A stretch of 64,000 bases of DNA from a virus (IMGVR_UViG_3300027782_000035); one strand, 5' to 3'; counted from the stretch's first letter, positions 30,950-62,378 are shown. The notes: generated by a model from the sequence alone, not told the origin. Numbers and translations are program-made.

Positions 30950-31609
30950 CTATTTTATTTTTTTCTCTGTAGTTTTCTTTGCGGGAGCCTTTTTCCTAGG
31001 TGCTCTCTTTGGCTTTTGAGATTCTTCAAATTCTTTAGATTTAGTTACAAGTCTTTTCTCAAGTCTTTTTACAACTTCTTCACCATCCATCCATATATCT
31101 TTATTCTCAAGCATAGATTTAATTTCCTGCTCTGTCATAAAATCTTTATAGATTTCATTCATCAAGCGTGCAGACCATTTTCTTTCATGCTGAAGTTGGT
31201 CAAACATTTCTCCACCTTTGCCAAACACTCCAGCGGAATAATTATGGAACATGAATACCGAATGAGGAGTTACTTCAAAGTTATCAGCACATAAGAAAAC
31301 CATAGTTGCTGCAGAGCAGCATGCGCCTTCAACAGAAGCTATAATAGTTGCTTCACTTTCGCCAAGCACTCGCATAAACTGAATTGCTGTGAATAAATCT
31401 CCACCTGGAGAATTGATATAAATCTTTACGATGTCAGTTTCTTCAGCATGGCGAATTAAATCAAACCATTCCATATATGTATCAGCTTCTTCAATTTCTC
31501 CACTTAAATAAAACTCATGCAAGTGTGCAATAGGTTTAGGCGGAAATTGACCATTAGAATGTATTTTCGGTTTACCAAGTTCAAGAACGTCGCCCATAGT
31601 GTACTCCAT
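30950..31609 (-). CDS. clpP: ClpP-like protease
   Basis: IYINSPGG, ACCSAAT (catalytic Ser), FMFH, DIWMDGEE. Confidence 0.85.
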   Translation of the reverse strand: MEYTMGDVLELGKPKIHSNGQFPPKPIAHLHEFYLSGEIEEADTYMEWFDLIRHAEETDIVKIYINSPGGDLFTAIQFMRVLGESEATIIASVEGACCSAATMVFLCADNFEVTPHSVFMFHNYSAGVFGKGGEMFDQLQHERKWSARLMNEIYKDFMTEQEIKSMLENKDIWMDGEEVVKRLEKRLVTKSKEFEESQKPKRAPRKKAPAKKTTEKKIK

Positions 31610-33033: not shown

Positions 33034-33181
33034 ATCATTTCCTTAGAAAATTAAAAAGTTAAACTATCAAATTCATCAGCTTCGTCACTATCGTTTCAGT
33101 ACAAGATACTAAGGTATCGGTGGCTGGCGAATAGCAAGGACTAACTAAAGATAGGTTTTGAAGAGACCTATAACTCTCAAA

Positions 33182-33631
33182 TTAAAACGAGTATTTCAAA
33201 CCAACTGCAATTTGATTACCATCAAATGCATTTACACTTTTCTGACCTTCTTGACGGCGCCAATCAATCGTTGCGGCCAAATTCTTGGCAACAGGAACAG
33301 AACCACCGACACCAGCAGTAACGGCATAACCATCAGCACCAGTTTGATTCATCAAATATGCAACGCCACCTTTTACTGCAACAGTAACAGGTCCGACTTT
33401 CGTAACATCATATGAACCAACTAAACTATAACGGTCTTGGTCATTTGTCCCTTGAACGAAACGAGTGTAACCGGCTTCAACACCAATAGCACCAAATTTT
33501 TCACCTAAAGTAATACCATAACCTGTGCGGTCGGCACTACCAGAATAATCACGGGTACCGTTTACACCAACTTCTACTGCTGATGCTGATAATGCCAAAG
33601 TGGCCAATGTTGCAAATAAAACTTTTTTCAA
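33182..33631 (-). CDS. outer-membrane beta-barrel protein (8-stranded, OmpA-TM/Lom-like)
   Basis: Signal peptide, amphipathic strands, C-terminal VGLKYSF beta-signal. Confidence 0.85.
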   Translation of the reverse strand: MKKVLFATLATLALSASAVEVGVNGTRDYSGSADRTGYGITLGEKFGAIGVEAGYTRFVQGTNDQDRYSLVGSYDVTKVGPVTVAVKGGVAYLMNQTGADGYAVTAGVGGSVPVAKNLAATIDWRRQEGQKSVNAFDGNQIAVGLKYSF

Positions 33632-33654
33632 AATAAACTCCTTGTTGTTAATAG

Positions 33655-33990
33655 TGGTTAGTTATTCTGTTACGAGGAAACTAACCGAAACCCTAAGCTG
33701 CGTTTAAGCTGCTAATGCGAACTGTGAGTCGTTTGCGTTTACTTTTTTTGCTTGATTAACGGTCATCGCCTACCGTGTTGCCGTCGCCACTATCTAGCCC
33801 TGTCGAAACTATGCAGGCCCATCAGAAAGACACTTATGTTTAGTTAACCCTTTATCCCTTACCCACTCAAATCTAATAAAACAGGTTGGGCATAATGCAG
33901 TATATCTATGTTTCATAATTATCTTTTTGGTGGACCTGGGGGGATTCGCACCCCCGTCCAGAACTCCTTCGCTTTGAAGGGATTACAACA
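33655..33990 (-). ncRNA. ssrA: circularly permuted (two-piece) tmRNA
   Basis: Segment ..GGACGGGGGTGCGAATCCCCCCAGGTCCACCA (ends 33928) lies upstream of the segment starting GGGCCTG (33820); G3:U70 pair; tag GCAAACGACTCACAGTTCGCATTAGCAGCTTAA = ANDSQFALAA; outer ends approximate. Confidence 0.9.
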
Positions 33991-33992
33991 AT

Positions 33993-34559
33993 TCAATAAC
34001 TGACTGATAACCTATCAGTCAGTGTAAACTCTCTGTCTCTTACAAATGCAGTCAAAATATATTTTGACCCTGCGATCACACTTTCACCTTGATGAATCAT
34101 TGGTTCTTGTGTGTTGTATTTATAAACAACACAACTGCCACGCCGGGGTTTGATTCTCAAATTGTTTTTGGCAAAAACTGTGCAACCACCTTCAAAATCA
34201 TCATTGAGATACATGATCATTGTGGCTGTTCTTTGCGACGCAAAGCCCGACGTCAAGTCTGTGTGCCAATTGAAATAGTCTCCAACATCATATCTAATGA
34301 GAGGCATGGGTTCAATTTGCTGGATATTTTTAATATTAAAAAAATCTGCCACTCGCTTGGTCAACAAGTCAAAGTACTCATCATTGCCATATTCAATTCT
34401 GTGAGTTTTGCATTTTCTAATGTCATGGTATTCCAACTGACCGTTACGATGAACTTGACCATTTTTCCAATCGTAGTGCTTGGAAAAAATCTTGACAAGA
34501 TCTTGATCACTCAGCCAATTGTCATACTGCACAATTGAAGAACCATGGTGTGTTATCAT
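33993..34559 (-). CDS. 2OG-Fe(II) oxygenase (prolyl-hydroxylase-like)
   Basis: RY..FNWHTD..RTATMIMYLNDDFEGG..HQG..GSKY. Confidence 0.9.
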   Translation of the reverse strand: MITHHGSSIVQYDNWLSDQDLVKIFSKHYDWKNGQVHRNGQLEYHDIRKCKTHRIEYGNDEYFDLLTKRVADFFNIKNIQQIEPMPLIRYDVGDYFNWHTDLTSGFASQRTATMIMYLNDDFEGGCTVFAKNNLRIKPRRGSCVVYKYNTQEPMIHQGESVIAGSKYILTAFVRDREFTLTDRLSVSY

Positions 34560-34642
34560 TGCACTTTTCTCTTTACTTCATACAGCAATATAGTTTATTA
34601 TATATTATATATTATCAATGATTATTGTGGAAATTAATTTTA

Positions 34643-35296
34643 TCAATTTCCTTTAAGCTTAAAGTACTCTTCACGCAACTCAAGAAATTTTCCAATCCAA
34701 TCATCACGCTTTTCGATAAACACTGAAGCTTCTGGTTGTTCATCTACTGTCATAAGGATAACTAGTCTATCAACAGGAATCCCAGTACGCTCCTCAAACA
34801 TTACTGCGTACGCAGACGTTTGCATAAAATACCCATGAATATCGTCTCGAGCTTTAGCTCTCTTAGAGGTCTTAAAATCAATGACAGACATTCTTCCATC
34901 GTATTCTGCAATACAATCTACAGTTCCAGCAACTCTTAGATGATCTGAATATAATTGGGTTTCAAGACAGTGCACATTATCTATTCTGCACAACTCAGGT
35001 ACAATTGAATTCCACGTTTCGACCTCAAACATGTCGCAGTTGACGTCTTTGTTATTGAGGAAGTCTTCGCAAAGTGAGTGAACTCTTGTTCCTCGCTTTG
35101 TTGCTTTAGCGGAGACGCGGTTTGCTTCTTCCTCTCCGACTCGCTTTCGCCATGCGAAGATTGCTTCCTTTCCGTGCAATCCTGTGACGGACGTGACGGA
35201 AGGATAGGCTTTACCGTTTGGTGTTTGGTAGACTCTACCTTTGTCGGAATCAATACGCTTGAGTTTAGCGATATCATGATGTATATGTGTTATCAT
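34643..35296 (-). CDS. PD-(D/E)XK exonuclease
   Basis: YPSVT..WRKRVG..RGT.VH..AGTVDCIAEY..IDFKTS..Q.SAYA. Confidence 0.9.
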   Translation of the reverse strand: MITHIHHDIAKLKRIDSDKGRVYQTPNGKAYPSVTSVTGLHGKEAIFAWRKRVGEEEANRVSAKATKRGTRVHSLCEDFLNNKDVNCDMFEVETWNSIVPELCRIDNVHCLETQLYSDHLRVAGTVDCIAEYDGRMSVIDFKTSKRAKARDDIHGYFMQTSAYAVMFEERTGIPVDRLVILMTVDEQPEASVFIEKRDDWIGKFLELREEYFKLKGN

Positions 35297-50378: not shown

Positions 50379-50765
50379 ATGGCCTACTCAGATAAAGTGT
50401 TAGATCACTATGAAAATCCACGCAACGTGGGTTCTCTAGACAAAGACGATCCAACAGTTGGCACTGGTATGGTTGGCGCACCAGCATGTGGTGATGTGAT
50501 GAAATTACAAATAAAGGTAGATGAAAATGGTATTATTAGAGACGCTCGTTTCAAGACATATGGCTGCGGTTCGGCCATCGCTAGTAGTTCGTTGGTTACA
50601 GAGCTTGTTCGTGGGATGCATATTGATGATGCTTCTAATATACGCAACAGCCAAATTGCCGAAGAACTAGCATTGCCTCCAGTTAAAATCCACTGCTCTA
50701 TACTTGCAGAAGATGCAATTAAAGCAGCTATCCACGACTATCAATTAAAGTGTGCATGCTCATGA
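50379..50765 (+). CDS. iscU: Fe-S cluster scaffold IscU
   Basis: MAYSDKVLDHYENPRNVG, APACGD, GCGSAIASSS, LPPVKIHC. Confidence 0.97.
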   Translation: MAYSDKVLDHYENPRNVGSLDKDDPTVGTGMVGAPACGDVMKLQIKVDENGIIRDARFKTYGCGSAIASSSLVTELVRGMHIDDASNIRNSQIAEELALPPVKIHCSILAEDAIKAAIHDYQLKCACS

Positions 50766-51073
50766 TTACCTTAACAGAATCCGCAAAAAAACAAATTGAT
50801 GAAATCCTAATGGACGATGCATCAATGAAATATGTAAGAGCATTTATTTCTGGTGGGGGATGCTCTGGTTTTAATTATGGATTTACTCTTGAAGAAGATA
50901 AAGAAGAAGATGATCTTATCATAGACAACCTTATAGTTGATGCTATGAGTATGCAATACTTTGATAATGCTACGATCGATTATACAAGCGACAAACTCAA
51001 AGGATCGCAGTTTGTTATATCAAACCCAAATGCAAAATCAACATGCGGTTGTGGAAGTTCGTTTAGTGTATGA
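50762..51073 (+). CDS. A-type Fe-S carrier IscA/ErpA (HesB family)
   Basis: GGGCSGFNY, NPNAKSTCGCGSSF. Confidence 0.95.
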   Translation: MITLTESAKKQIDEILMDDASMKYVRAFISGGGCSGFNYGFTLEEDKEEDDLIIDNLIVDAMSMQYFDNATIDYTSDKLKGSQFVISNPNAKSTCGCGSSFSV

Positions 51074-56713: not shown

Positions 56714-56788
56714 TGGTACCTTGTGACGGTTTCGAACCGCCGACATCCCACTTGTAAGGAGGGCGCTCTACCACTGAGCTAACAAGGC
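56714..56788 (-). tRNA. tRNA-Val(TAC)
   Basis: Cloverleaf, CT-TAC-AA, CCA. Confidence 0.9.
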
Positions 56789-56795
56789 ATAATCT

Positions 56796-56871
56796 TGGGC
56801 AGACGTTACGGACTTGAACCGTTCCTACGAGTTTCACAGACTCGTGTGCTAACCACTACACTAAACGCTGC
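56796..56871 (-). tRNA. tRNA-His(GTG), irregular acceptor stem
   Basis: CT-GTG-AA, G-1:C73, bulged acceptor. Confidence 0.8.
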
Positions 56872-56876
56872 ATATA

Positions 56877-57004
56877 CCATATAGAAACACACTGTGGTGC
56901 TTGAATCCGTGATAGCCCCTCTCTTCCTGGCCGGTCCTTGCACTGTCTAGAATTGGCAAGTATTTCGGTGTTCCAGTGTAGCTACTCAATGTGTTTTTAT
57001 ATGG
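56877..57004 (-). ncRNA. tRNA-appended long-stem element A
   Basis: CCATATAAAAACACATTG...CAGTGTGTTTCTATATGG. Confidence 0.55.
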
Positions 57005-57076
57005 TAGAGGTACAGGGAATCGAACCCTGATTAATAGGTTAAAAGCCTACTACTTTAGCCGTTAAGTTATACCTCC
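57002..57076 (-). tRNA. tRNA-Lys(TTT)
   Basis: CT-TTT-AA, CCA. Confidence 0.9.
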
Positions 57077-57226
57077 ATTGGTATTTGTTTTTGTGCTTTA
57101 CGTAATGCCTTATTAGACTTACGATGAACACCTGCTTTACGGAAAAGTGCAAGTCGAACGAAGCAGTTACGTTCGCGCACGATTGTCTTTCGTTTACTCA
57201 TCTTCATTCTCCTTGTTAATAATTAG

Positions 57227-57300
57227 TGGAGCGGGGTAGGAGAATCGAACTCCTCGCTTTAGCTTGGAAGGCTAGGGTATTACCACTATACGAACCCCGC
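57227..57300 (-). tRNA. tRNA-Gly(TCC)
   Basis: CT-TCC-AA, U73, CCA. Confidence 0.92.
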
Positions 57301-57301
57301 A

Positions 57302-57577
57302 TTATACTTTAATTGTACTCCATTGACGAAGTTTTTCTCGTTTTGCTTCACGAGCTTTTTCTATCCAAAGAGCACCAATGATATCGTGCTCAATAAGTAA
57401 GTCGATCATACACAGAAGATCACCAACTTCTTCCTCAAGATGTTCGCGGTTAGTAACGCTGTTATATTCAGCATCTATACCAAACCTAAACACCTTGCTG
57501 ATAGCTTGGATAACTTCAGCGCATTCCTCTTGAGCGATCAAGAGAATTTCTTTTCCATTGTCATTTGTGTTTTTCAT
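57302..57577 (-). CDS. MazG-like NTP pyrophosphohydrolase
   Basis: EECAEVIQAISK..EEEVGDL; promoter at 57584-57612. Confidence 0.8.
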   Translation of the reverse strand: MKNTNDNGKEILLIAQEECAEVIQAISKVFRFGIDAEYNSVTNREHLEEEVGDLLCMIDLLIEHDIIGALWIEKAREAKREKLRQWSTIKV

Positions 57578-57620
57578 ATTGTAATTATACCACAAACACG
57601 AATTAATGTACACCGTTATT

Positions 57621-57696
57621 TGGAGCGGGCGATCGGGTTCGAACCGACGACATTTACCTTGGCAAGGTAATGCTCTACCAACTGAGCTACGCCCGC
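57621..57696 (-). tRNA. tRNA-Gly(GCC)
   Basis: TT-GCC-AA, CCA. Confidence 0.95.
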
Positions 57697-57697
57697 A

Positions 57698-57904
57698 TTA
57701 ATTGTCTACTACTGTGTACGTAGGGCTAACTATTACATACTTAGCACGCTGCACATTCACTTCAATGATAGGAACACTATTAGCTTCATTCGTTGCTTTA
57801 ACAAAAGCACGTGCTTCATGTTCAGTGTCAAAATATATGGTACCATCTACATTCATAGATGTTTCATCTTCACGCGTAATCAATACAACTTTATATGGTT
57901 TCAT
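57698..57904 (-). CDS. hypothetical protein
   Basis: 68-aa ORF filling the gap between tRNAs. Confidence 0.55.
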   Translation of the reverse strand: MKPYKVVLITREDETSMNVDGTIYFDTEHEARAFVKATNEANSVPIIEVNVQRAKYVIVSPTYTVVDN

Positions 57905-57917
57905 AATGTTTCTTATT

Positions 57918-57991
57918 TGGCATCCCTCCAGAGACTCGAACTCCGACTAATGGTTTTGGAGACCATCGTGCTGCCATTACACCAGAGAGAC
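57918..57991 (-). tRNA. tRNA-Trp(CCA)
   Basis: CT-CCA-AA. Confidence 0.9.
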
Positions 57992-57994
57992 ATT

Positions 57995-58077
57995 TGGTAC
58001 CCGAAGCCGGACTCGAACCGGCACGCACTAGGCGGGAGATTTTAAGTCTCCTGTGTCTACCATTCCACCATTCGGGC
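57995..58077 (-). tRNA. tRNA-Leu(TAA)
   Basis: CT-TAA-AA, variable arm. Confidence 0.92.
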
Positions 58078-58356
58078 TTATTTCTTAACTAACGGATTCT
58101 CGGAATCTAGCGCATCTTCATTCTTAAATACAACCTTGGCGCTACCAACAGTGCCAGGCATATCTAAAATACAATCTTCAGTAGATAACACATCTTGATA
58201 TTCATTCTTAGCTGTGCCTGTATTATCTTCATCAAGATTATCACGCCTAAAGATAGCGTCCCAACGAGTATTATACTCTTCTTGACTTACGCTAAATGGA
58301 CGTGGATTTGATCCTTTACCTCCGGGATTTCCCGTCATATCAAATGTTGCTGTCAT
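58078..58356 (-). CDS. hypothetical protein
   Basis: GGKGS.PRPFSVS..WDAIF motif; AGGAG SD. Confidence 0.65.
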   Translation of the reverse strand: MTATFDMTGNPGGKGSNPRPFSVSQEEYNTRWDAIFRRDNLDEDNTGTAKNEYQDVLSTEDCILDMPGTVGSAKVVFKNEDALDSENPLVKK

Positions 58357-58364
58357 ATGAACTC

Positions 58365-58487
58365 CTATCTACCTTGTCCTCGATATCTTTTTGTGCGTTT
58401 ACGCGTTTTGTTAAGAGTACTAGTCTTACTTCCGTTTTGACAAGTTTTCTTAACAATTTTTCTACGTGAACTCGTGCCTTTACTCAT
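58365..58487 (-). CDS. small basic protein ending RYRGQGR
   Basis: Manual ORF MSKGTSSRRKIVKKTCQNGSKTSTLNKTRKRTKRYRGQGR; AAGGAG SD. Confidence 0.65.
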   Translation of the reverse strand: MSKGTSSRRKIVKKTCQNGSKTSTLNKTRKRTKRYRGQGR

Positions 58488-58499
58488 AATTATCTCCTT

Positions 58500-58574
58500 T
58501 GGTGCTGATGGCGGGACTCGAACCCACGACCTCTTCCTTACCAAGGAAGTACACTACCACTGTGTTACATCAGC
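58500..58574 (-). tRNA. tRNA-Thr(GGT)
   Basis: TT-GGT-AA. Confidence 0.92.
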
Positions 58575-58585
58575 AAATTATAAAA

Positions 58586-58662
58586 TGGTCGGAGTACAAG
58601 GATTCGAACCTTGGACCCCCTGGTCCCAAACCAGGTGCGCTACCAGACTGCGCTACACTCCG
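58586..58662 (-). tRNA. tRNA-Pro(TGG)
   Basis: TT-TGG-GA. Confidence 0.95.
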
Positions 58663-58674
58663 TAAAACTATATA

Positions 58675-58750
58675 TGGTAGTTGAGGTGGGACTCGAACCC
58701 ACGATAGTCACCGTATGAAGGTGGTGCATTAGCCACTATGCTACTCAACC
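58675..58750 (-). tRNA. tRNA-Met(CAT), probably elongator
   Basis: TT-CAT-AC. Confidence 0.85.
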
Positions 58751-58759
58751 ATATAAACT

Positions 58760-58834
58760 TGGTGCCGGATGTCTGGTTCGAACAGACGACCTATCGCTTA
58801 CAAGGCGATTGCACTACCACTGTGCTAATCCGGC
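58760..58834 (-). tRNA. tRNA-Thr(TGT)
   Basis: CT-TGT-AA. Confidence 0.9.
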
Positions 58835-58840
58835 GAAAAC

Positions 58841-58917
58841 TGGTAGCGGAGGAGGGATTCGAACCCCCGATTCTTGGCTTATGAGACCAAGCGGATAGAC
58901 CACTTCCATACTCCGCG
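58841..58917 (-). tRNA. tRNA-fMet-like (CAT)
   Basis: CT-CAT-AA; C1:T72 mismatch. Confidence 0.85.
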
Positions 58918-58923
58918 ATATAT

Positions 58924-58999
58924 TGGTGGAGGTGACAGGACTCGAACCCGCTACCTACTGCTTGCAAAGCAGCCGCTCTCCCAGCTGAGCTACACCCCC
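58924..58999 (-). tRNA. tRNA-Ala(TGC)
   Basis: TT-TGC-AA; G3:U70. Confidence 0.95.
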
Positions 59000-59007
59000 A
59001 AAAAACT

Positions 59008-59082
59008 TGGCGCGTCCTGAAGGAATCGAACCTCCATCCCAAAGTTCGTAGCCTTGTATATTATCCATTATACGAAGGACGC
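59008..59082 (-). tRNA. tRNA-Arg(ACG)
   Basis: CT-ACG-AA. Confidence 0.9.
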
Positions 59083-59089
59083 ATTATTC

Positions 59090-59144
59090 AACAGAATCGT
59101 TTTGCTTTTTTTCATAAAAAGTTTTTTATTGCTGAACCGATTCT
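59090..59144 (-). ncRNA. candidate CAGCA-motif RNA 4
   Basis: Stem AGAATCG/CGATTCT, GTTCAGCAA, 3' GTT; compensatory change relative to RNA 2. Confidence 0.55.
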
Positions 59145-59149
59145 AAAAC

Positions 59150-59225
59150 TGGCTCCCCAGCGTGGGATCGAACCACGGACACCTTGATTAACAGTCAAGT
59201 GCAACTACCGCTGTGCTACTGGGGA
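59150..59225 (-). tRNA. tRNA-Asn(GTT)
   Basis: CT-GTT-AA. Confidence 0.92.
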
Positions 59226-59379
59226 ATAAATATTTTTATGATAGACGTCAACACCGCAATTGCTCGCTTGTACAAATTTTCACAAAGAAAATACGTACAG
59301 CGTGCGTCTTACACTAACTCTAAAGAATTCAAACTTGATGAACTTCTAAGTAAACCTAAGCCTGAATTCAAACCAATCG

Positions 59380-59467
59380 TGGTGGGTGTTGATGGTAACG
59401 CTCCACGAACCTGACTTCCCATCTCTTTAGGTAACGGTTTTACAGACCGCCGACGGGGGCAACACCC
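59380..59467 (-). tRNA. atypical D-armless tRNA-Tyr(GTA)-like
   Basis: GGGTGTTG/CAACACCC-ACCA acceptor; GCGGT-CTGTAAA-ACCGT arm; no D stem; non-canonical T loop. Confidence 0.65.
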
Positions 59468-59473
59468 TAAACT

Positions 59474-59547
59474 TGGTCCCCTCGTATGGAATCGGACCAT
59501 CTTCTCTCGGTTATCAGCCGAGTGCTCTACCATTGAGCTACAAGGGG
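59474..59547 (-). tRNA. tRNA-Ile(GAT)
   Basis: CT-GAT-AA. Confidence 0.88.
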
Positions 59548-59553
59548 AAATAT

Positions 59554-59629
59554 TGGTAGGAACGATTGGACTCGAACCAACCACACGCAAATTTTCAGTC
59601 TGCTGCTCTACCTGATGAGCTACGTTCCC
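59554..59629 (-). tRNA. tRNA-Phe(GAA)
   Basis: CT-GAA-AA. Confidence 0.9.
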
Positions 59630-59635
59630 ATTATA

Positions 59636-59727
59636 TGGCGGAAAGCAGAGGAGTCGAACCCCATCCCATTTCTGAGAACCCAGTTTTCAAGGCTGGTCGC
59701 CGGACCATCCCAGCTGCATTACTTTCC
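59636..59727 (-). tRNA. tRNA-Ser(TGA)
   Basis: CT-TGA-AA, variable arm, G73. Confidence 0.85.
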
Positions 59728-59734
59728 ATAAACT

Positions 59735-59811
59735 TGGTACCCCAGAGGAGACTCGAACTCCTAAAATTTGGTTTCTAAGACCAACACGTATACCAATTCC
59801 GTCACCGGGGC
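59735..59811 (-). tRNA. tRNA-Leu(TAG), no long variable arm
   Basis: CT-TAG-AA, 77 nt. Confidence 0.85.
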
Positions 59812-59816
59812 AATAA

Positions 59817-59964
59817 TTATTGTTAAGTGTTATCCGCCGATTTGTCAAAAATGTAGCTAGCACTGACAAGCGAATAGCAGTTATATCAGGACCTGTTCCT
59901 CGCACAGTTAGGCCCGCATAGTGTAAGCGTCCTTACACGATACCTTGATAACACTTAACAATAA
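59817..59964 (-). ncRNA. structured element closed by an 18-bp perfect stem
   Basis: TTATTGTTAAGTGTTATC...GATAACACTTAACAATAA between tRNA-Asp and tRNA-Leu. Confidence 0.55.
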
Positions 59965-59968
59965 ACTA

Positions 59969-60043
59969 TGGCGGTGCCAAGGGGTAACGATCCCCTTCTT
60001 CGAGCGTGACAGGCTCGTGTGCGTCCATGAACACTTTGGCACC
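59969..60043 (-). tRNA. tRNA-Asp(GTC)
   Basis: CT-GTC-AC, G73. Confidence 0.88.
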
Positions 60044-60047
60044 AAAT

Positions 60048-60238
60048 TAGGATAAGCTACTGGGTTCCACGCCAGCCCTTAATTGAGCAGTTACTCTGTC
60101 CATCCCTTTTATTCTGATGTCTGTGTGCAGAGGGAACTGCCTATCAGAGCCTGAGGGGTTACCTCGCTAACGGTTTTCTGCCACCGGATCTCTGTCGCTA
60201 ATCAAACGCTATTTTAACGAAAATAGTAACGGGATTCT
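60048..60238 (-). ncRNA. manA-like structured RNA (tentative)
   Basis: About 190 nt non-coding, multi-hairpin, inside the tRNA cluster; resemblance to the manA motif is from memory and unverified. Confidence 0.45.
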
Positions 60239-60239
60239 A

Positions 60240-60408
60240 CCATAAAGAAACACACTGGCAAATCCCTTCCTGAGACTATTGCGTTTGCTCCGCTCACTCT
60301 TGTTTTCTCGGATTCCTTGGGCTTGAGATTAAACTCAGGAAAGCATAGGGTTCCAGCCTATGGCTAACATCCGCCCTCACCGGTACTGGGCAATGTGTTT
60401 CTTTATGG
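60240..60408 (-). ncRNA. tRNA-appended long-stem element B
   Basis: CCATAAAGAAACACATTG...CAGTGTGTTTCTTTATGG. Confidence 0.55.
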
Positions 60409-60480
60409 TACACGGTACGGGAATCGAACCCGTCTTACATACGTGAAAGGCATGTGTCCTAACCGATAGACGAACCGTGC
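60406..60480 (-). tRNA. tRNA-Glu(TTC)
   Basis: CT-TTC-AC. Confidence 0.92.
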
Positions 60481-60481
60481 A

Positions 60482-60672
60482 TGGTGGTGGTTTTTAGAGA
60501 ACCACCAAACTCAATGGCTGACCTTTGGTCATTTAATGTTTCCTGCTCGGCGTTTTGACGTGCATCCTTTTCAGGCTGACCTTCAAGGTCCATTTAATGC
60601 GTCCTGCGTTGCGTTTTGAAACAACCTTTACGTGCCTCATGCTCCGTATTTACCGTAGACTTAGAGAGGACT
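60482..60672 (-). ncRNA. tandem-motif RNA ending in a hairpin plus ACCA
   Basis: Two copies of CAAAACGC-N3-GCAGGA-N2-CATTAAATG-ACC..GGTCAGCC; 3' GGTGGTT-CTCTAAA-AACCACC-ACCA. Confidence 0.45.
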
Positions 60673-60676
60673 TTTA

Positions 60677-60746
60677 GAATTTTTAAAGAACGTTTGCTTT
60701 ATCAGCAGTAGATAGAGATTATACACCATCTACGATTTATTGTACA
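60677..60746 (-). promoter_or_regulatory. early promoter plus boxA-like element
   Basis: TGTACA-N17-TATAAT (60718-60746); AACGTTCTTTAAAAATTC (60677-60694). Confidence 0.75.
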
Positions 60747-60755
60747 CCGTTATTT

Positions 60756-60947
60756 TTAAACTCTTTCAACGGTTCCTAAAACACCGCGCGTACCGCGCGT
60801 GTATTTAGACACAGTCTGAGCCCATACAGTGTACCTAGATTTGTCAATGGGAAAAGTCTCTTGACCTTTCTTTGGTCCACGATAAGCGCACTGAGTAAAC
60901 TTAACGCCATCAATAACGATTACAGTGTCTTTAGATTTCCTAGCCAT
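60756..60947 (-). CDS. small basic hypothetical protein
   Basis: AAAGGA SD; between two promoter cassettes. Confidence 0.6.
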   Translation of the reverse strand: MARKSKDTVIVIDGVKFTQCAYRGPKKGQETFPIDKSRYTVWAQTVSKYTRGTRGVLGTVERV

Positions 60948-60977
60948 TTAAGTTCCTTTGTTTGACTTGATATAGCT

Positions 60978-61040
60978 ATTCTATCAAATTGACGATTTAT
61001 TGTACACCGTTATTTCAATAGTTGACTAAAACAGTCAACT
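60978..61040 (-). promoter_or_regulatory. early promoter plus palindrome cassette
   Basis: TGTACA-N17-TAGAAT; agttgact-aaaac-agtcaact. Confidence 0.8.
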
Positions 61041-61189
61041 TAAACCTTTAGTATTCAAAATGCATCAGGTGATCTTGAAAGGCATCGAGCTAGGGTAATC
61101 CCTATCGAGCCATCAAACGTTCATTCTGGTGCATTCTGTACACATAAGTTGTTGATTTATAAGGGCTAAAAATAGCCTTTTTATCACTT

Positions 61190-61267
61190 TGGAGCAACGG
61201 GTGAGATTCGAACTCACGGTTTTACGGATTTGCAATCCATTGCGTTGGGCCTCTCCGCCACCGTTGC
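61190..61267 (-). tRNA. tRNA-Cys(GCA)
   Basis: TT-GCA-AA, U73. Confidence 0.9.
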
Positions 61268-61268
61268 A

Positions 61269-61826
61269 TTAATTCCATACACGAGAATGTTTTGGCACTC
61301 CTGACTTTAGGTACTCCATCTGATCAGCCAGAATGTGTCGATTCTGAAGGATCATGTTTTCGTAATGATTAGGTGCGTATGGAACATATAGAAGTTCAAG
61401 CCCGCACTGATGAAGTAACTTGGCTCCTTTATGAGTGTTACACTTTACGCATGCAGTCACTACGTTAGACCATACGTTTTCACCACCTTTTGAAACTGGA
61501 ACAATGTGATCCCGTGATAGGTTGTTATTGGTAAAGAGCCCACCACAGTAAGCACATATATGCTTGTCGCGCGAGAATAAAGTTTTATTTGTTAGGATAA
61601 CACTGCCAGCACGTTCGATTGCAAATCCTTTACCACGTACAGCAATGATCGATGGAGTTTCTATAACGGACATACGGCCATCATTCTGAGTTCCTCCACG
61701 GAACGTTGCTACTACGTCACCAAGAGTCCACACTACCATATCCTTAGCGAAGTATGATACTGCGTCTTCATAGTTAATCCACTTGCGTGGTAGTCCAGAT
61801 ACGTCTAATGCTAATACATGTGACAT
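61269..61826 (-). CDS. HNH endonuclease
   Basis: RDKHICAYCG..DHIVP.S.GG..W.NVVTAC..CN..KG. Confidence 0.92.
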   Translation of the reverse strand: MSHVLALDVSGLPRKWINYEDAVSYFAKDMVVWTLGDVVATFRGGTQNDGRMSVIETPSIIAVRGKGFAIERAGSVILTNKTLFSRDKHICAYCGGLFTNNNLSRDHIVPVSKGGENVWSNVVTACVKCNTHKGAKLLHQCGLELLYVPYAPNHYENMILQNRHILADQMEYLKSGVPKHSRVWN

Positions 61827-61863
61827 GATTACTCCTTACAACTTTCTTCCTTAATTATATAGG

Positions 61864-61939
<76 letters not shown>

Positions 61940-61947
61940 ATTAAAAC

Positions 61948-62039
61948 TGGTACCAGCGGAGGGGATCGAACCCTCTCAAGAACGCTAATCTGGCGCTAAA
62001 AGGCTTATAAGACCTCTCTGACTTCCAAGTCTCGCTGGC
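61948..62039 (-). tRNA. atypical tRNA-Ile(TAT) with long variable arm
   Basis: GAGGT-CTTATAA-GCCTT; short D arm GACT-TGGA-AGTC; canonical T arm; ACCA. Confidence 0.7.
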
Positions 62040-62044
62040 ATATT

Positions 62045-62134
62045 TGGCGGAGTGACTGGGACTCGAACCCAGAAGCCTGCTTTCGCAAACCGACGGATTA
62101 GCAATCCGCTCTAATACCATTATAGGACCACTCC
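62045..62134 (-). tRNA. tRNA-Ser(GCT)
   Basis: TT-GCT-AA, variable arm. Confidence 0.9.
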
Positions 62135-62141
62135 AAAATCT

Positions 62142-62219
62142 TGGTCTGGGTAGCAGGATTCGAACCTGCAGCCTCGAAGTTCCAAACCTCGCCGTCTACC
62201 TGATTGACAATATACCCAG
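62142..62219 (-). tRNA. tRNA-Pro(TGG), second copy
   Basis: TT-TGG-AA (A37 instead of G37). Confidence 0.8.
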
Positions 62220-62225
62220 ATGAAA

Positions 62226-62307
62226 CCATATCGAAACACACTTCGGATACTGTACTAAACAGGAACTATCCACCACGGCCATGGCGCTGAAATGCATTTC
62301 AATATGG
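62226..62307 (-). ncRNA. tRNA-appended long-stem element C
   Basis: CCATATTGAAATGCATTT...AAGTGTGTTTCGATATGG. Confidence 0.55.
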
Positions 62308-62378
62308 CACCGGAACTAGGGTTCGAACCTAGGACGACAGAGTCAAAGTCTGTTGTGTTACCACTACACTATTCCGGA
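62305..62378 (-). tRNA. tRNA-Gln(TTG)
   Basis: CT-TTG-AC. Confidence 0.9.

Follow-up and report, generated by a model that had tools for sequence, protein, structure and literature searches.

The DNA considered here is a 64,000-nucleotide stretch of viral DNA (IMGVR_UViG_3300027782_000035; hereafter the window), in which a preliminary description had noted a permuted, two-piece tmRNA gene near a gene for a phage ClpP. This locus raises the question of whether a phage carries a working two-piece tmRNA, and whether this RNA forms part of a ribosome-rescue and degradation system of the phage's own. Judging from comparative sequence evidence, we consider it likely that a lytic T4-like phage from fresh water carries, in the window, a working two-piece tmRNA gene whose structural type is that of betaproteobacteria; the phage two-piece tmRNA is real and very probably functional.

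Anatomy of the two-piece tmRNA gene

The gene can be read on the minus strand as an acceptor piece, an intervening segment, and a coding piece, with the following features.

~33928..33992, minus strand: acceptor (tRNA-like 3') piece, comprising leader, T arm, acceptor 3' strand, A73, and CCA
33989-33985 and 33965-33959, minus strand: P2 5' strands of the acceptor-piece leader, GTTGT and AGTTCTG
Within the acceptor piece, minus strand: local hairpin CCUUC/GAAGG
33955-33939, minus strand: T arm GGGGG-UGCGAAU-CCCCC, with G at T-loop position 55 (33949)
33938-33932, minus strand: acceptor 3' strand CAGGTCC, followed by discriminator A73 at 33931
33930-33928, minus strand: encoded CCA
33821..33927, minus strand: intervening segment (107 nt) from the CCA end to the RNase P site, predicted to be removed
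~33650..33820, minus strand: coding (mRNA-like) piece
33820-33814, minus strand: acceptor 5' strand GGGCCTG, the first bases of the coding piece
33813-33802, minus strand: D-loop analogue CAUAGUUUCGAC
33802-33796 and 33781-33777, minus strand: P2 3' strands CAGGGCT and GCAAC, partners of AGTTCTG and GTTGT
33776-33759, minus strand: hairpin ACGGU/ACCGU, preceding the tag
33736-33704, minus strand: tag ORF GCA AAC GAC TCA CAG TTC GCA TTA GCA GCT TAA, encoding ANDSQFALAA
33713-33696, minus strand: helix 5, with one A.A mismatch
33686-33656, minus strand: 3' hairpin GGUUAG/CUAACC

The acceptor stem GGGCCUG/CAGGUCC has seven standard pairs, including G3:U70, and is followed by a discriminator A, a combination that specifies alanine identity. 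ARAGORN called a permuted tmRNA at 33613-34020 on the minus strand with the tag ANDSQFALAA, and full-length minus-strand matches at ~33992-33650 were obtained with the Rfam models RF01850 (beta_tmRNA; 144.2 bits, E value = 3.9e-44, gathering score 84) and RF04321 (tmRNA_permuted; 142.2 bits, E value = 6e-28, gathering score 47). These scores are far beyond chance, and no further Rfam match was found in 33100-34700, even at an E value of ≤1. The check with ARAGORN and Infernal that had been proposed for this locus thus returned a permuted call and two models above their thresholds. The preliminary description had placed the CCA-ending segment upstream of GGGCCTG, had claimed the acceptor stem with G3:U70, discriminator A, and CCA together with the helix-2 pairings CAGGGCT/AGTTCTG and GCAAC/GTTGT, and had read the tag as ANDSQFALAA; all of these elements are present, both pairings lie between the two pieces, and its span of 33655-33990 agrees with the gene to within a few bases. 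Counting against a working gene are the absence of the final hairpin of the RF01850 model, the lack of a detectable terminator 3' of the gene, and the mismatch in helix 5. All inter-piece helices are intact in the window.

The carrier phage and its possible host

By its gene content, the window belongs to a T4-like phage, with genes for baseplate wedge and hub proteins, gp25, gp53, gp32, gp59, the gp33 coactivator, PhoH, and DNA ligase. ARAGORN found 27 tRNA genes; an HNH endonuclease gene (61269-61826, minus strand) lies within a 26-gene tRNA array at 56714-62378. A megablast search with 24 kb of window sequence found no match among 50,697 phage records, and the sole blastn match of the tmRNA region was 69 nt in six Pseudomonas phage records. 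The closest isolates by gp6 are OM43 phage Melnitz (40.7%) and pelagimyophages. Near-identical DNA is present in contigs from runs labeled freshwater or lake metagenome; run X1 contains 0.89 of the words sampled from the window and may represent the sample of origin, and a 715-nt contig of RNA library X3 differs from the window by three letters.

Weak hints point to a Gram-negative, Pseudomonadota-like host, namely, the AND...ALAA tag, an IscU/IscA pair whose closest Atlas clusters are viral and from Pseudomonadota, and a small secreted protein ending in ...YSF that is encoded directly 3' of the tmRNA. The beta-type tmRNA gene alone does not imply a betaproteobacterial host, because Pseudomonas phage SM1 has such a gene as well. 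The IscU (TIGR01999, 224 bits) and IscA-like genes (50379-51073, plus strand) adjoin genes for a metallophosphoesterase, a glycosyltransferase, and a fatty-acid desaturase. Immediately 3' of the tmRNA, an ORF (33182-33631, minus strand) encodes a signal peptide, an alternating beta-strand-like sequence, and a C-terminal ...GLKYSF, and its product looks like a small outer-membrane beta-barrel protein; it had no family match, and of 80 related loci, 3 had a homologue.

A large family of phage-borne tmRNA genes

The exact 32-nt T-arm/acceptor end of the window's gene recurs in ~230 IMG/VR stretches, at least 120 of which were examined as loci, on contigs of 4 to 364 kb. ARAGORN called a permuted tmRNA in 90 of 120 listed loci and a standard tmRNA in none, and most loci without a call were cut by contig ends or by the 300- to 600-nt flanks used. 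An anchor-based reading, which also counted in the window and two contigs from metagenome-assembled genomes (MAGs), found 92 of 123 sequences to be complete; the remaining 31 were mostly cut by contig ends or short flanks. In these 92 family members, the spacer (intervening segment) ranged from 25 to 382 nt. ANDSQFALAA was the commonest tag (30 of 90 ARAGORN calls), followed by ANDEQFALAA (9 of 90) and many variants. Tags of 27 to 31 residues (e.g., ANVNKTVTVSGKNLKFSARSAKEALAV) were seen in L008, L038, L047, L048, L063, L077, and other loci, and some of the long-tag family members are on contigs of 286 to 364 kb.

When any base was allowed at T-loop position 55, the 32-mer was found in only two contigs among 185,579 species, each represented by one genome, in a search by exact match to which diverged cellular relatives are invisible. 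Both contigs are 20 to 23 kb long and come from Bacteroidota MAGs; their genes lie on one strand and are mostly ORFans or members of phage families, and three proteins are shared with the window. On this gene content, we read the two contigs as phage DNA in the bins. The tmRNA of the T4-like window belongs to a large, apparently phage-borne family.

Some loci had additional features. In the Haliscomenobacter MAG, a large contig (L127, G002:C1:131426-134661) gave a second match to tmRNA_permuted, at 67 bits, which adjoins a tRNA-Thr gene and was not called by ARAGORN. In L165 and L175, a second acceptor-like piece with a leader and T arm of another type lies ~900 nt upstream of the tmRNA, and the order is acceptor-like piece, 239-amino-acid ORF, and normal acceptor piece; this layout reflects either two pieces in tandem or the insertion of a gene accompanied by a duplication.

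A paired change in the T loop and D loop

The family T arm has a 5-bp stem and a 7-nt loop, UGCGAAU, with G at position 55, where a near-universal U is the norm. The U55 version of the 32-mer was found in three viral stretches, versus ~230 with G55. G55 always occurred with the D-loop sequence UAG, in which A (33810 in the window) replaces the first G of GG, whereas U55 always occurred with GG; there were eight distinct G55/AG and three distinct U55/GG combinations and none that were mixed. Phage SM1 and the Rfam consensus also combine U55 with GG. Because G18 contacts U55 in tRNA, A18/G55 may be a compensated tertiary contact, which in this case would reach across two RNA pieces. Independent switches to G55/A18 were few, perhaps one or two. 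With G at position 55, the function of the gene depends on this proposed D-loop compensation, which counts against a working gene.

A distant ClpP-fold protease and no SmpB

The neighbor described as a phage ClpP is the following gene.

30950..31609, minus strand: ClpP-fold serine protease gene, 2.0 kb downstream of the tmRNA, with four ORFs between

Its product is a distant ClpP-fold protease rather than a ClpP. NCBIfam models of cellular ClpP gave 22 to 31 bits versus cutoffs of 228 to 361, and the best NCBIfam model, "head maturation protease, ClpP-related," reached 81 bits, below its cutoff of 120. The PHROG "ATP-dependent protease" gave 223 bits, and the broad Pfam CLP_protease family was matched weakly (44 bits, cutoff 20). 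The Ser, His, and Asp residues of the protein align with those of a solved ClpP chain (6hwm_A), which we take to be the catalytic triad.

That tmRNA and protease could form a dedicated tag-and-degrade module is suggested by their proximity on the same strand, by these aligned residues, and by the LAA ending of the tag, yet we regard this explanation as very improbable. Apart from the low scores with ClpP models, tblastn of 80 family loci with up to 10 kb on either side found a homologue of the protease within 10 kb of the tmRNA in only two (25 to 28% identity, 4.3 and 8.6 kb away); the neighboring hydrolase, exonuclease, gp59, and gp33 genes were found in 20 to 22 of the 80. Pfam CLP_protease was absent from three whole records of T4-like phages, one of them 100% complete, and in two jumbo records of 342 to 347 kb it was present but far from the tmRNA. 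Neither ClpX nor SmpB was matched by any of the window ORFs run against Pfam (73 ORFs) or PHROGs (33 ORFs). The tmRNA and the protease therefore do not form a conserved unit.

SmpB (PF01668) was also missing from all five whole related viral records, three of which are at least 90% complete, in a search that gave a match in 10 of 14 control genomes. As these phages lack SmpB, their tmRNA would therefore depend on the SmpB of the host. Of the earlier proposal that the phage brings its own rescue and degradation arm, the permuted tmRNA proved genuine, but the ClpP link found no support, with a homologue in 2 of 80 loci and neither ClpX nor SmpB among the window ORFs examined. The story of a tmRNA plus a ClpP is attractive but unsupported and is corrected here.

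Selection on the helices and the tag

We aligned 60 distinct genes, comprising the window and 59 of 122 loci, and left out 17 loci without a readable 5' piece, 18 that were too short, 15 duplicates, and 13 with a spacer of >140 nt. Helices were scored on the structure read from the window, as a brute-force search for covarying columns was too noisy. Paired cells amounted to 88.4%, compared with 81.5% in shuffled alignments (0 of 500 as high) and 37 to 50% with slid partners, and the covariation score was 0.181 versus 0.084. The inter-piece distal P2 helix was 98.3% paired, with changes on both sides in three of its five pairs, and P2a was 92.3% paired. Changes on both sides were likewise seen in helix 5 and in the hairpins that precede the tag and close the 3' end, yet these three elements were only 64 to 82% paired in this alignment. 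The acceptor and T stems were invariant (acceptor stem in 60 of 60, with U:G at the third pair), but this invariance is uninformative because it stems partly from ascertainment.

The tag codons vary mostly synonymously. Ten different nucleotide versions encode ANDSQFALAA, and codon entropy across 38 distinct 10-codon tags was 0.49, 0.48, and 0.91 at codon positions 1, 2, and 3, respectively. Selection thus acts on both the helices and the tag peptide, so that the gene is maintained in two capacities, as a two-piece RNA and as a peptide template.

These patterns bear on the alternative that the RNA is an inhibitor, with a tRNA-like domain that sequesters the SmpB of the host and so blocks trans-translation there. 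Such a role has been proposed, in the portion of the source available (PMC4131195), for the RNA of mycobacteriophage DS6A, which consists of the tRNA-like domain (TLD) only. It would fit with conservation in the gene being strongest in the tRNA-like domain (invariant columns), with the unusual G55, and with the lack of SmpB in the phages. However, all 92 complete family members retain a full tag frame, from resume codon to stop, tag changes are mostly synonymous, and the helices around the tag covary. Because a decoy needs none of these, we give the inhibitor explanation only a very slim chance of being right.

A small protein gene in the spacer

The 107-nt spacer of the window's gene is not an empty sequence.

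33809..33916, minus strand: 35-codon ORF MKHRYTALCPTCFIRFEWVRDKGLTKHKCLSDGPA, beginning 11 nt after the CCA

This ORF ends 12 nt into the coding piece, where UAG in the D-loop analogue serves as its stop codon, and its product has a C-x2-C...H-x-C motif. Among 1.84 billion representative proteins, the peptide had three small relatives (94, 78, and 67% identity), and it is encoded in 25 IMG/VR loci. In 13 of the 25, the coding piece starts 90 to 96 nt after the ATG, as it does in the window. ARAGORN called a permuted tmRNA in six of eight peptide loci submitted; ten near-identical peptide loci without an ARAGORN call lie in a tmRNA-like context, as judged from inspection of L226 alone. In L236, the peptide gene is free-standing between two tRNA genes and has its own stop, and locus L220 was left out of the context reading. 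In the embedded copies, the peptide frame crosses the RNase P site.

The peptide sequence is under constraint. Across 10 sequences, M1, Y5, T6, A7, C9, P10, C12, F13, R15, F16, W18, K22, G23, L24, H27, K28, and C29 are invariant; pN/pS was 0.27 for a 25-codon core in 11 distinct sequences, and the window and L212 differ by seven synonymous changes and one replacement. AlphaFold predicted a beta-hairpin around the CPxC turn (pLDDT 71). No Pfam or PHROG family was matched at an E value of ≤0.01, and a Foldseek search against the PDB gave nothing at ≤0.001. The Shine-Dalgarno sequence is AAGGA in relatives versus AAAGA in the window. By these measures of conservation, the spacer holds a conserved small protein gene. 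More generally, among 59 distinct spacers that are 60 nt or longer, 25 have an ATG ORF of 20 codons or more that starts no further than 25 nt from the CCA, compared with 6.2 ± 2.3 spacers after shuffling (maximum of 12 in 300 shuffles).

A broader reading would join these observations, with the spacer as a gene slot policed by its own tmRNA and the family as a phage-only tmRNA lineage with A18/G55 re-pairing. The 35-amino-acid peptide would be translated from the unprocessed precursor; because its frame ends in the coding piece, RNase P maturation would leave the spacer as a message without a stop. The same tmRNA could then rescue ribosomes on the leftover spacer and tag the peptide for destruction, so that peptide output would be linked to tmRNA maturation by a built-in timer or by feedback, and the phage-only tRNA-like domain would work with whatever SmpB the host supplies. 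We consider this joint reading speculative and rather unlikely as a whole.

Leader, relic, and promoter

In the relatives L203, L195, L163, and L215, a consensus sigma-70 promoter, TTGACA-17-TATAAT, lies 7 to 9 nt before a leader of the type ATTGCTGTATGAAGCAAAGAGAAAAGTG-TTCTGG. Upstream of the window's gene, the arrangement is as follows.

34604..34633, minus strand: promoter match TTTCCA-18-TATAAT, sigma-70-like, just upstream of the relic leader
34562..34591, minus strand: relic of a tmRNA leader of the majority type, matching that of related phages at 29 of 30 nt
33993..34559, minus strand: 2OG-Fe(II) oxygenase gene, between the relic leader and the functional tmRNA, with its stop abutting the tmRNA leader
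33999..34023, minus strand: 11-bp hairpin at the end of the oxygenase-side ORF, 6 nt before the tmRNA leader

The relic leader is cut short immediately ahead of the T-arm-side TTCTGG. The functional gene has another leader type, UUGUUGUAAUCCCUUCAAAGCGAAGG, common to L026/L153, L063, L121, L213, L219, and SM1, and the coding piece matches this leader (GTTGT/GCAAC) and not the relic (GCTGT). Therefore, a block comprising the oxygenase gene and a whole tmRNA allele replaced most of an older allele. Copies of a leader 9-mer at -214 in eight loci were considered as further relics and rejected, as they are coding sequence of the exonuclease gene.

Since the inserted gene displaced the family promoter 600 nt upstream, the 5' end of the acceptor piece needs an extra cut, which counts against a working gene, and the working RNA must probably be cut from a longer transcript. 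The 11-bp hairpin (-14.2 kcal/mol, z score of -4.2, 0 of 200 shuffles as stable) is a possible processing or stability element.

The gene might accordingly be decaying or silent in the window's phage, its promoter separated and the ribosome-binding site of its spacer ORF weakened. The relic leader and promoter 600 nt upstream, the AAAGA in place of AAGGA, and the mismatch in helix 5 could all be taken in this sense. Nevertheless, the tRNA-like domain is letter-identical to that of ~230 other stretches, the tag is the commonest of the family, and the inter-piece helices are all intact; moreover, in L153/L026, L213, and L219, which have the same leader type, the tmRNA likewise lies directly behind an ORF without a promoter of its own. 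A silent remnant is therefore extremely unlikely in our view, and we continue with the reading of a working gene.

Comparison with known two-piece and phage tmRNAs

The window's gene resembles the betaproteobacterial two-piece tmRNA (RF01850; merged model RF04321, PMC11915505) in its order of acceptor piece, spacer, and coding piece, its P2 architecture, its single hairpin before the tag, and its AND...ALAA tag. It differs in being carried by a phage, in its T loop UGCGAAU (G55) and D-loop UAG versus UGG, in its coding spacer of 107 nt versus a consensus of ~18, and in lacking the final hairpin of the model. The available part of the 2025 tmRNA database paper of Miller and Williams (PMC11915505) gives only a tRNA gene and a repetitive element within tmRNA spacers. 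Judged by title and abstract, we found no literature on genes in tmRNA spacers or on the freshwater tmRNA family, and further supplements may hold more. In PMC5964084, tmRNA is named only in the reference list.

Permuted tmRNAs had been described at the outset as known from just a few bacterial lineages, a view that is outdated, as phage two-piece tmRNAs have been published (PMC9004378, in the portion available). Buchholz et al. (2022), in the same portion of that paper, described a two-piece ssrA in OM43 phage Melnitz, and Table S1 lists 53 ARAGORN-called permuted genes among 133 unique phage tmRNAs, including those of SM1, Caulobacter phages, cyanophages, crAss-like phages, and pelagimyophages. 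The tag ANDSQFALAA is absent from the Buchholz supplements. Like the window, Melnitz is a T4-like aquatic phage with its two-piece ssrA in the early region, upstream of the gene for the gp33 late-transcription coactivator. However, the Melnitz gene belongs to the alpha type (RF01849, 107 bits) and has a glutamine riboswitch (RF01739) directly downstream, whereas the window's gene is of the beta type; RF01739 was not found in the window, either at the gathering score or at an E value of ≤1.

Pseudomonas has a one-piece tmRNA. The Pseudomonas phages SM1 and PaMx31 (Samunavirus) share with the window a beta-type permuted gene, the leader motif UGUAAUCCCUUCAAAG, and an AND... tag. The gene of SM1, a cultured phage (RF01850, 111 bits; RF04321, 119 bits), differs in having the canonical U55 with a GG D-loop, the tag ANDTSFDVRLAA, and a G+C content of 57%. 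In the SM1 record (L211, KU245542.1, 53467-54735), the permuted tmRNA is unannotated and lies directly after tRNA-Arg(TCT), and the 69-nt match of SM1 recurs in five further Pseudomonas phage records. The SM1 gene is marked "Permuted" in the Buchholz Table S1, as seen in the available portion of PMC9004378.

The phage tmRNAs in the accessible part of Hudson et al. (2014; PMC4131195) are one-piece only, plus the TLD-only RNA of DS6A. On that text, the RNAs of mycobacteriophages, Bacillus phage G, and DS6A are likewise phage-borne trans-translation RNAs without a phage SmpB, but the mycobacteriophage and phage G tmRNAs have the standard gene order and the DS6A RNA has no tag.

Proposed processing and role

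The experimental paradigm for the processing proposed here is the Caulobacter two-piece tmRNA, which is of the alphaproteobacterial type, is cellular, and has a short noncoding spacer. Its precursor is reportedly cut into two base-paired RNAs by tRNA-processing enzymes, work that is attributed to Keiler, Shapiro, and Williams in 2000.

For the phage RNA, transcription, processing, charging, and benefit are inferred along the same lines. The gene would probably be transcribed in a longer early transcript, running from the promoter-like site at 34633-34604 through the relic leader, the 2OG-oxygenase gene, and the tmRNA to the next ORF. The 3' part of the acceptor piece and the 5' end of the coding piece would base-pair into an acceptor/T-arm minihelix, host RNase P would cut before G33820, and host nucleases would trim to the encoded CCA at 33928; cutting and trimming would free the 107-nt spacer, and the 7-bp acceptor stem, together with the P2 helices, would hold the two RNAs to each other. 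Host AlaRS could then charge the RNA via G3:U70 and A73, and host SmpB and EF-Tu would deliver it to ribosomes stalled on broken mRNAs. Translation would resume at GCA 33736, add ANDSQFALAA, and stop at UAA, after which host proteases may remove the tagged products. The benefit may be that ribosomes are kept free during host and phage mRNA decay, or during cutting by defense RNases, after host ssrA expression stops.

Contigs from three RNA libraries and one DNA library were compared for depth. In the RNA libraries, summed contig depth was highest on the coding piece; in library X21, this depth, which pools relatives, was 5,242 on 33737-33803 versus 16 to 108 on the spacer and 34 on the acceptor piece, and the DNA run also peaked on the conserved parts (1,080 and 994). 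Because per-contig depth pools relatives and RNA libraries can contain DNA, these peaks say nothing of expression or processing. Contig skips of ~90 to 100 nt and of ~600 nt are not splicing; they reflect relatives with other spacers or without the 2OG gene.

Implications

As two-piece tmRNAs of phages have already been published, the window's gene adds another example, and the points worth following up are the coding spacer, the relic leader, and the G55/A18 pair. The family represents a very widespread, apparently phage-borne tmRNA lineage in lake viruses that would depend on host SmpB. The paired change at two sites on different RNA pieces offers a natural test of the D-loop/T-loop contact in tmRNA. 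The "discarded" spacer and the leader of the family's tmRNA serve as landing sites for genes, and if the spacer peptide is made, precursors of stable phage RNAs can double as messengers.
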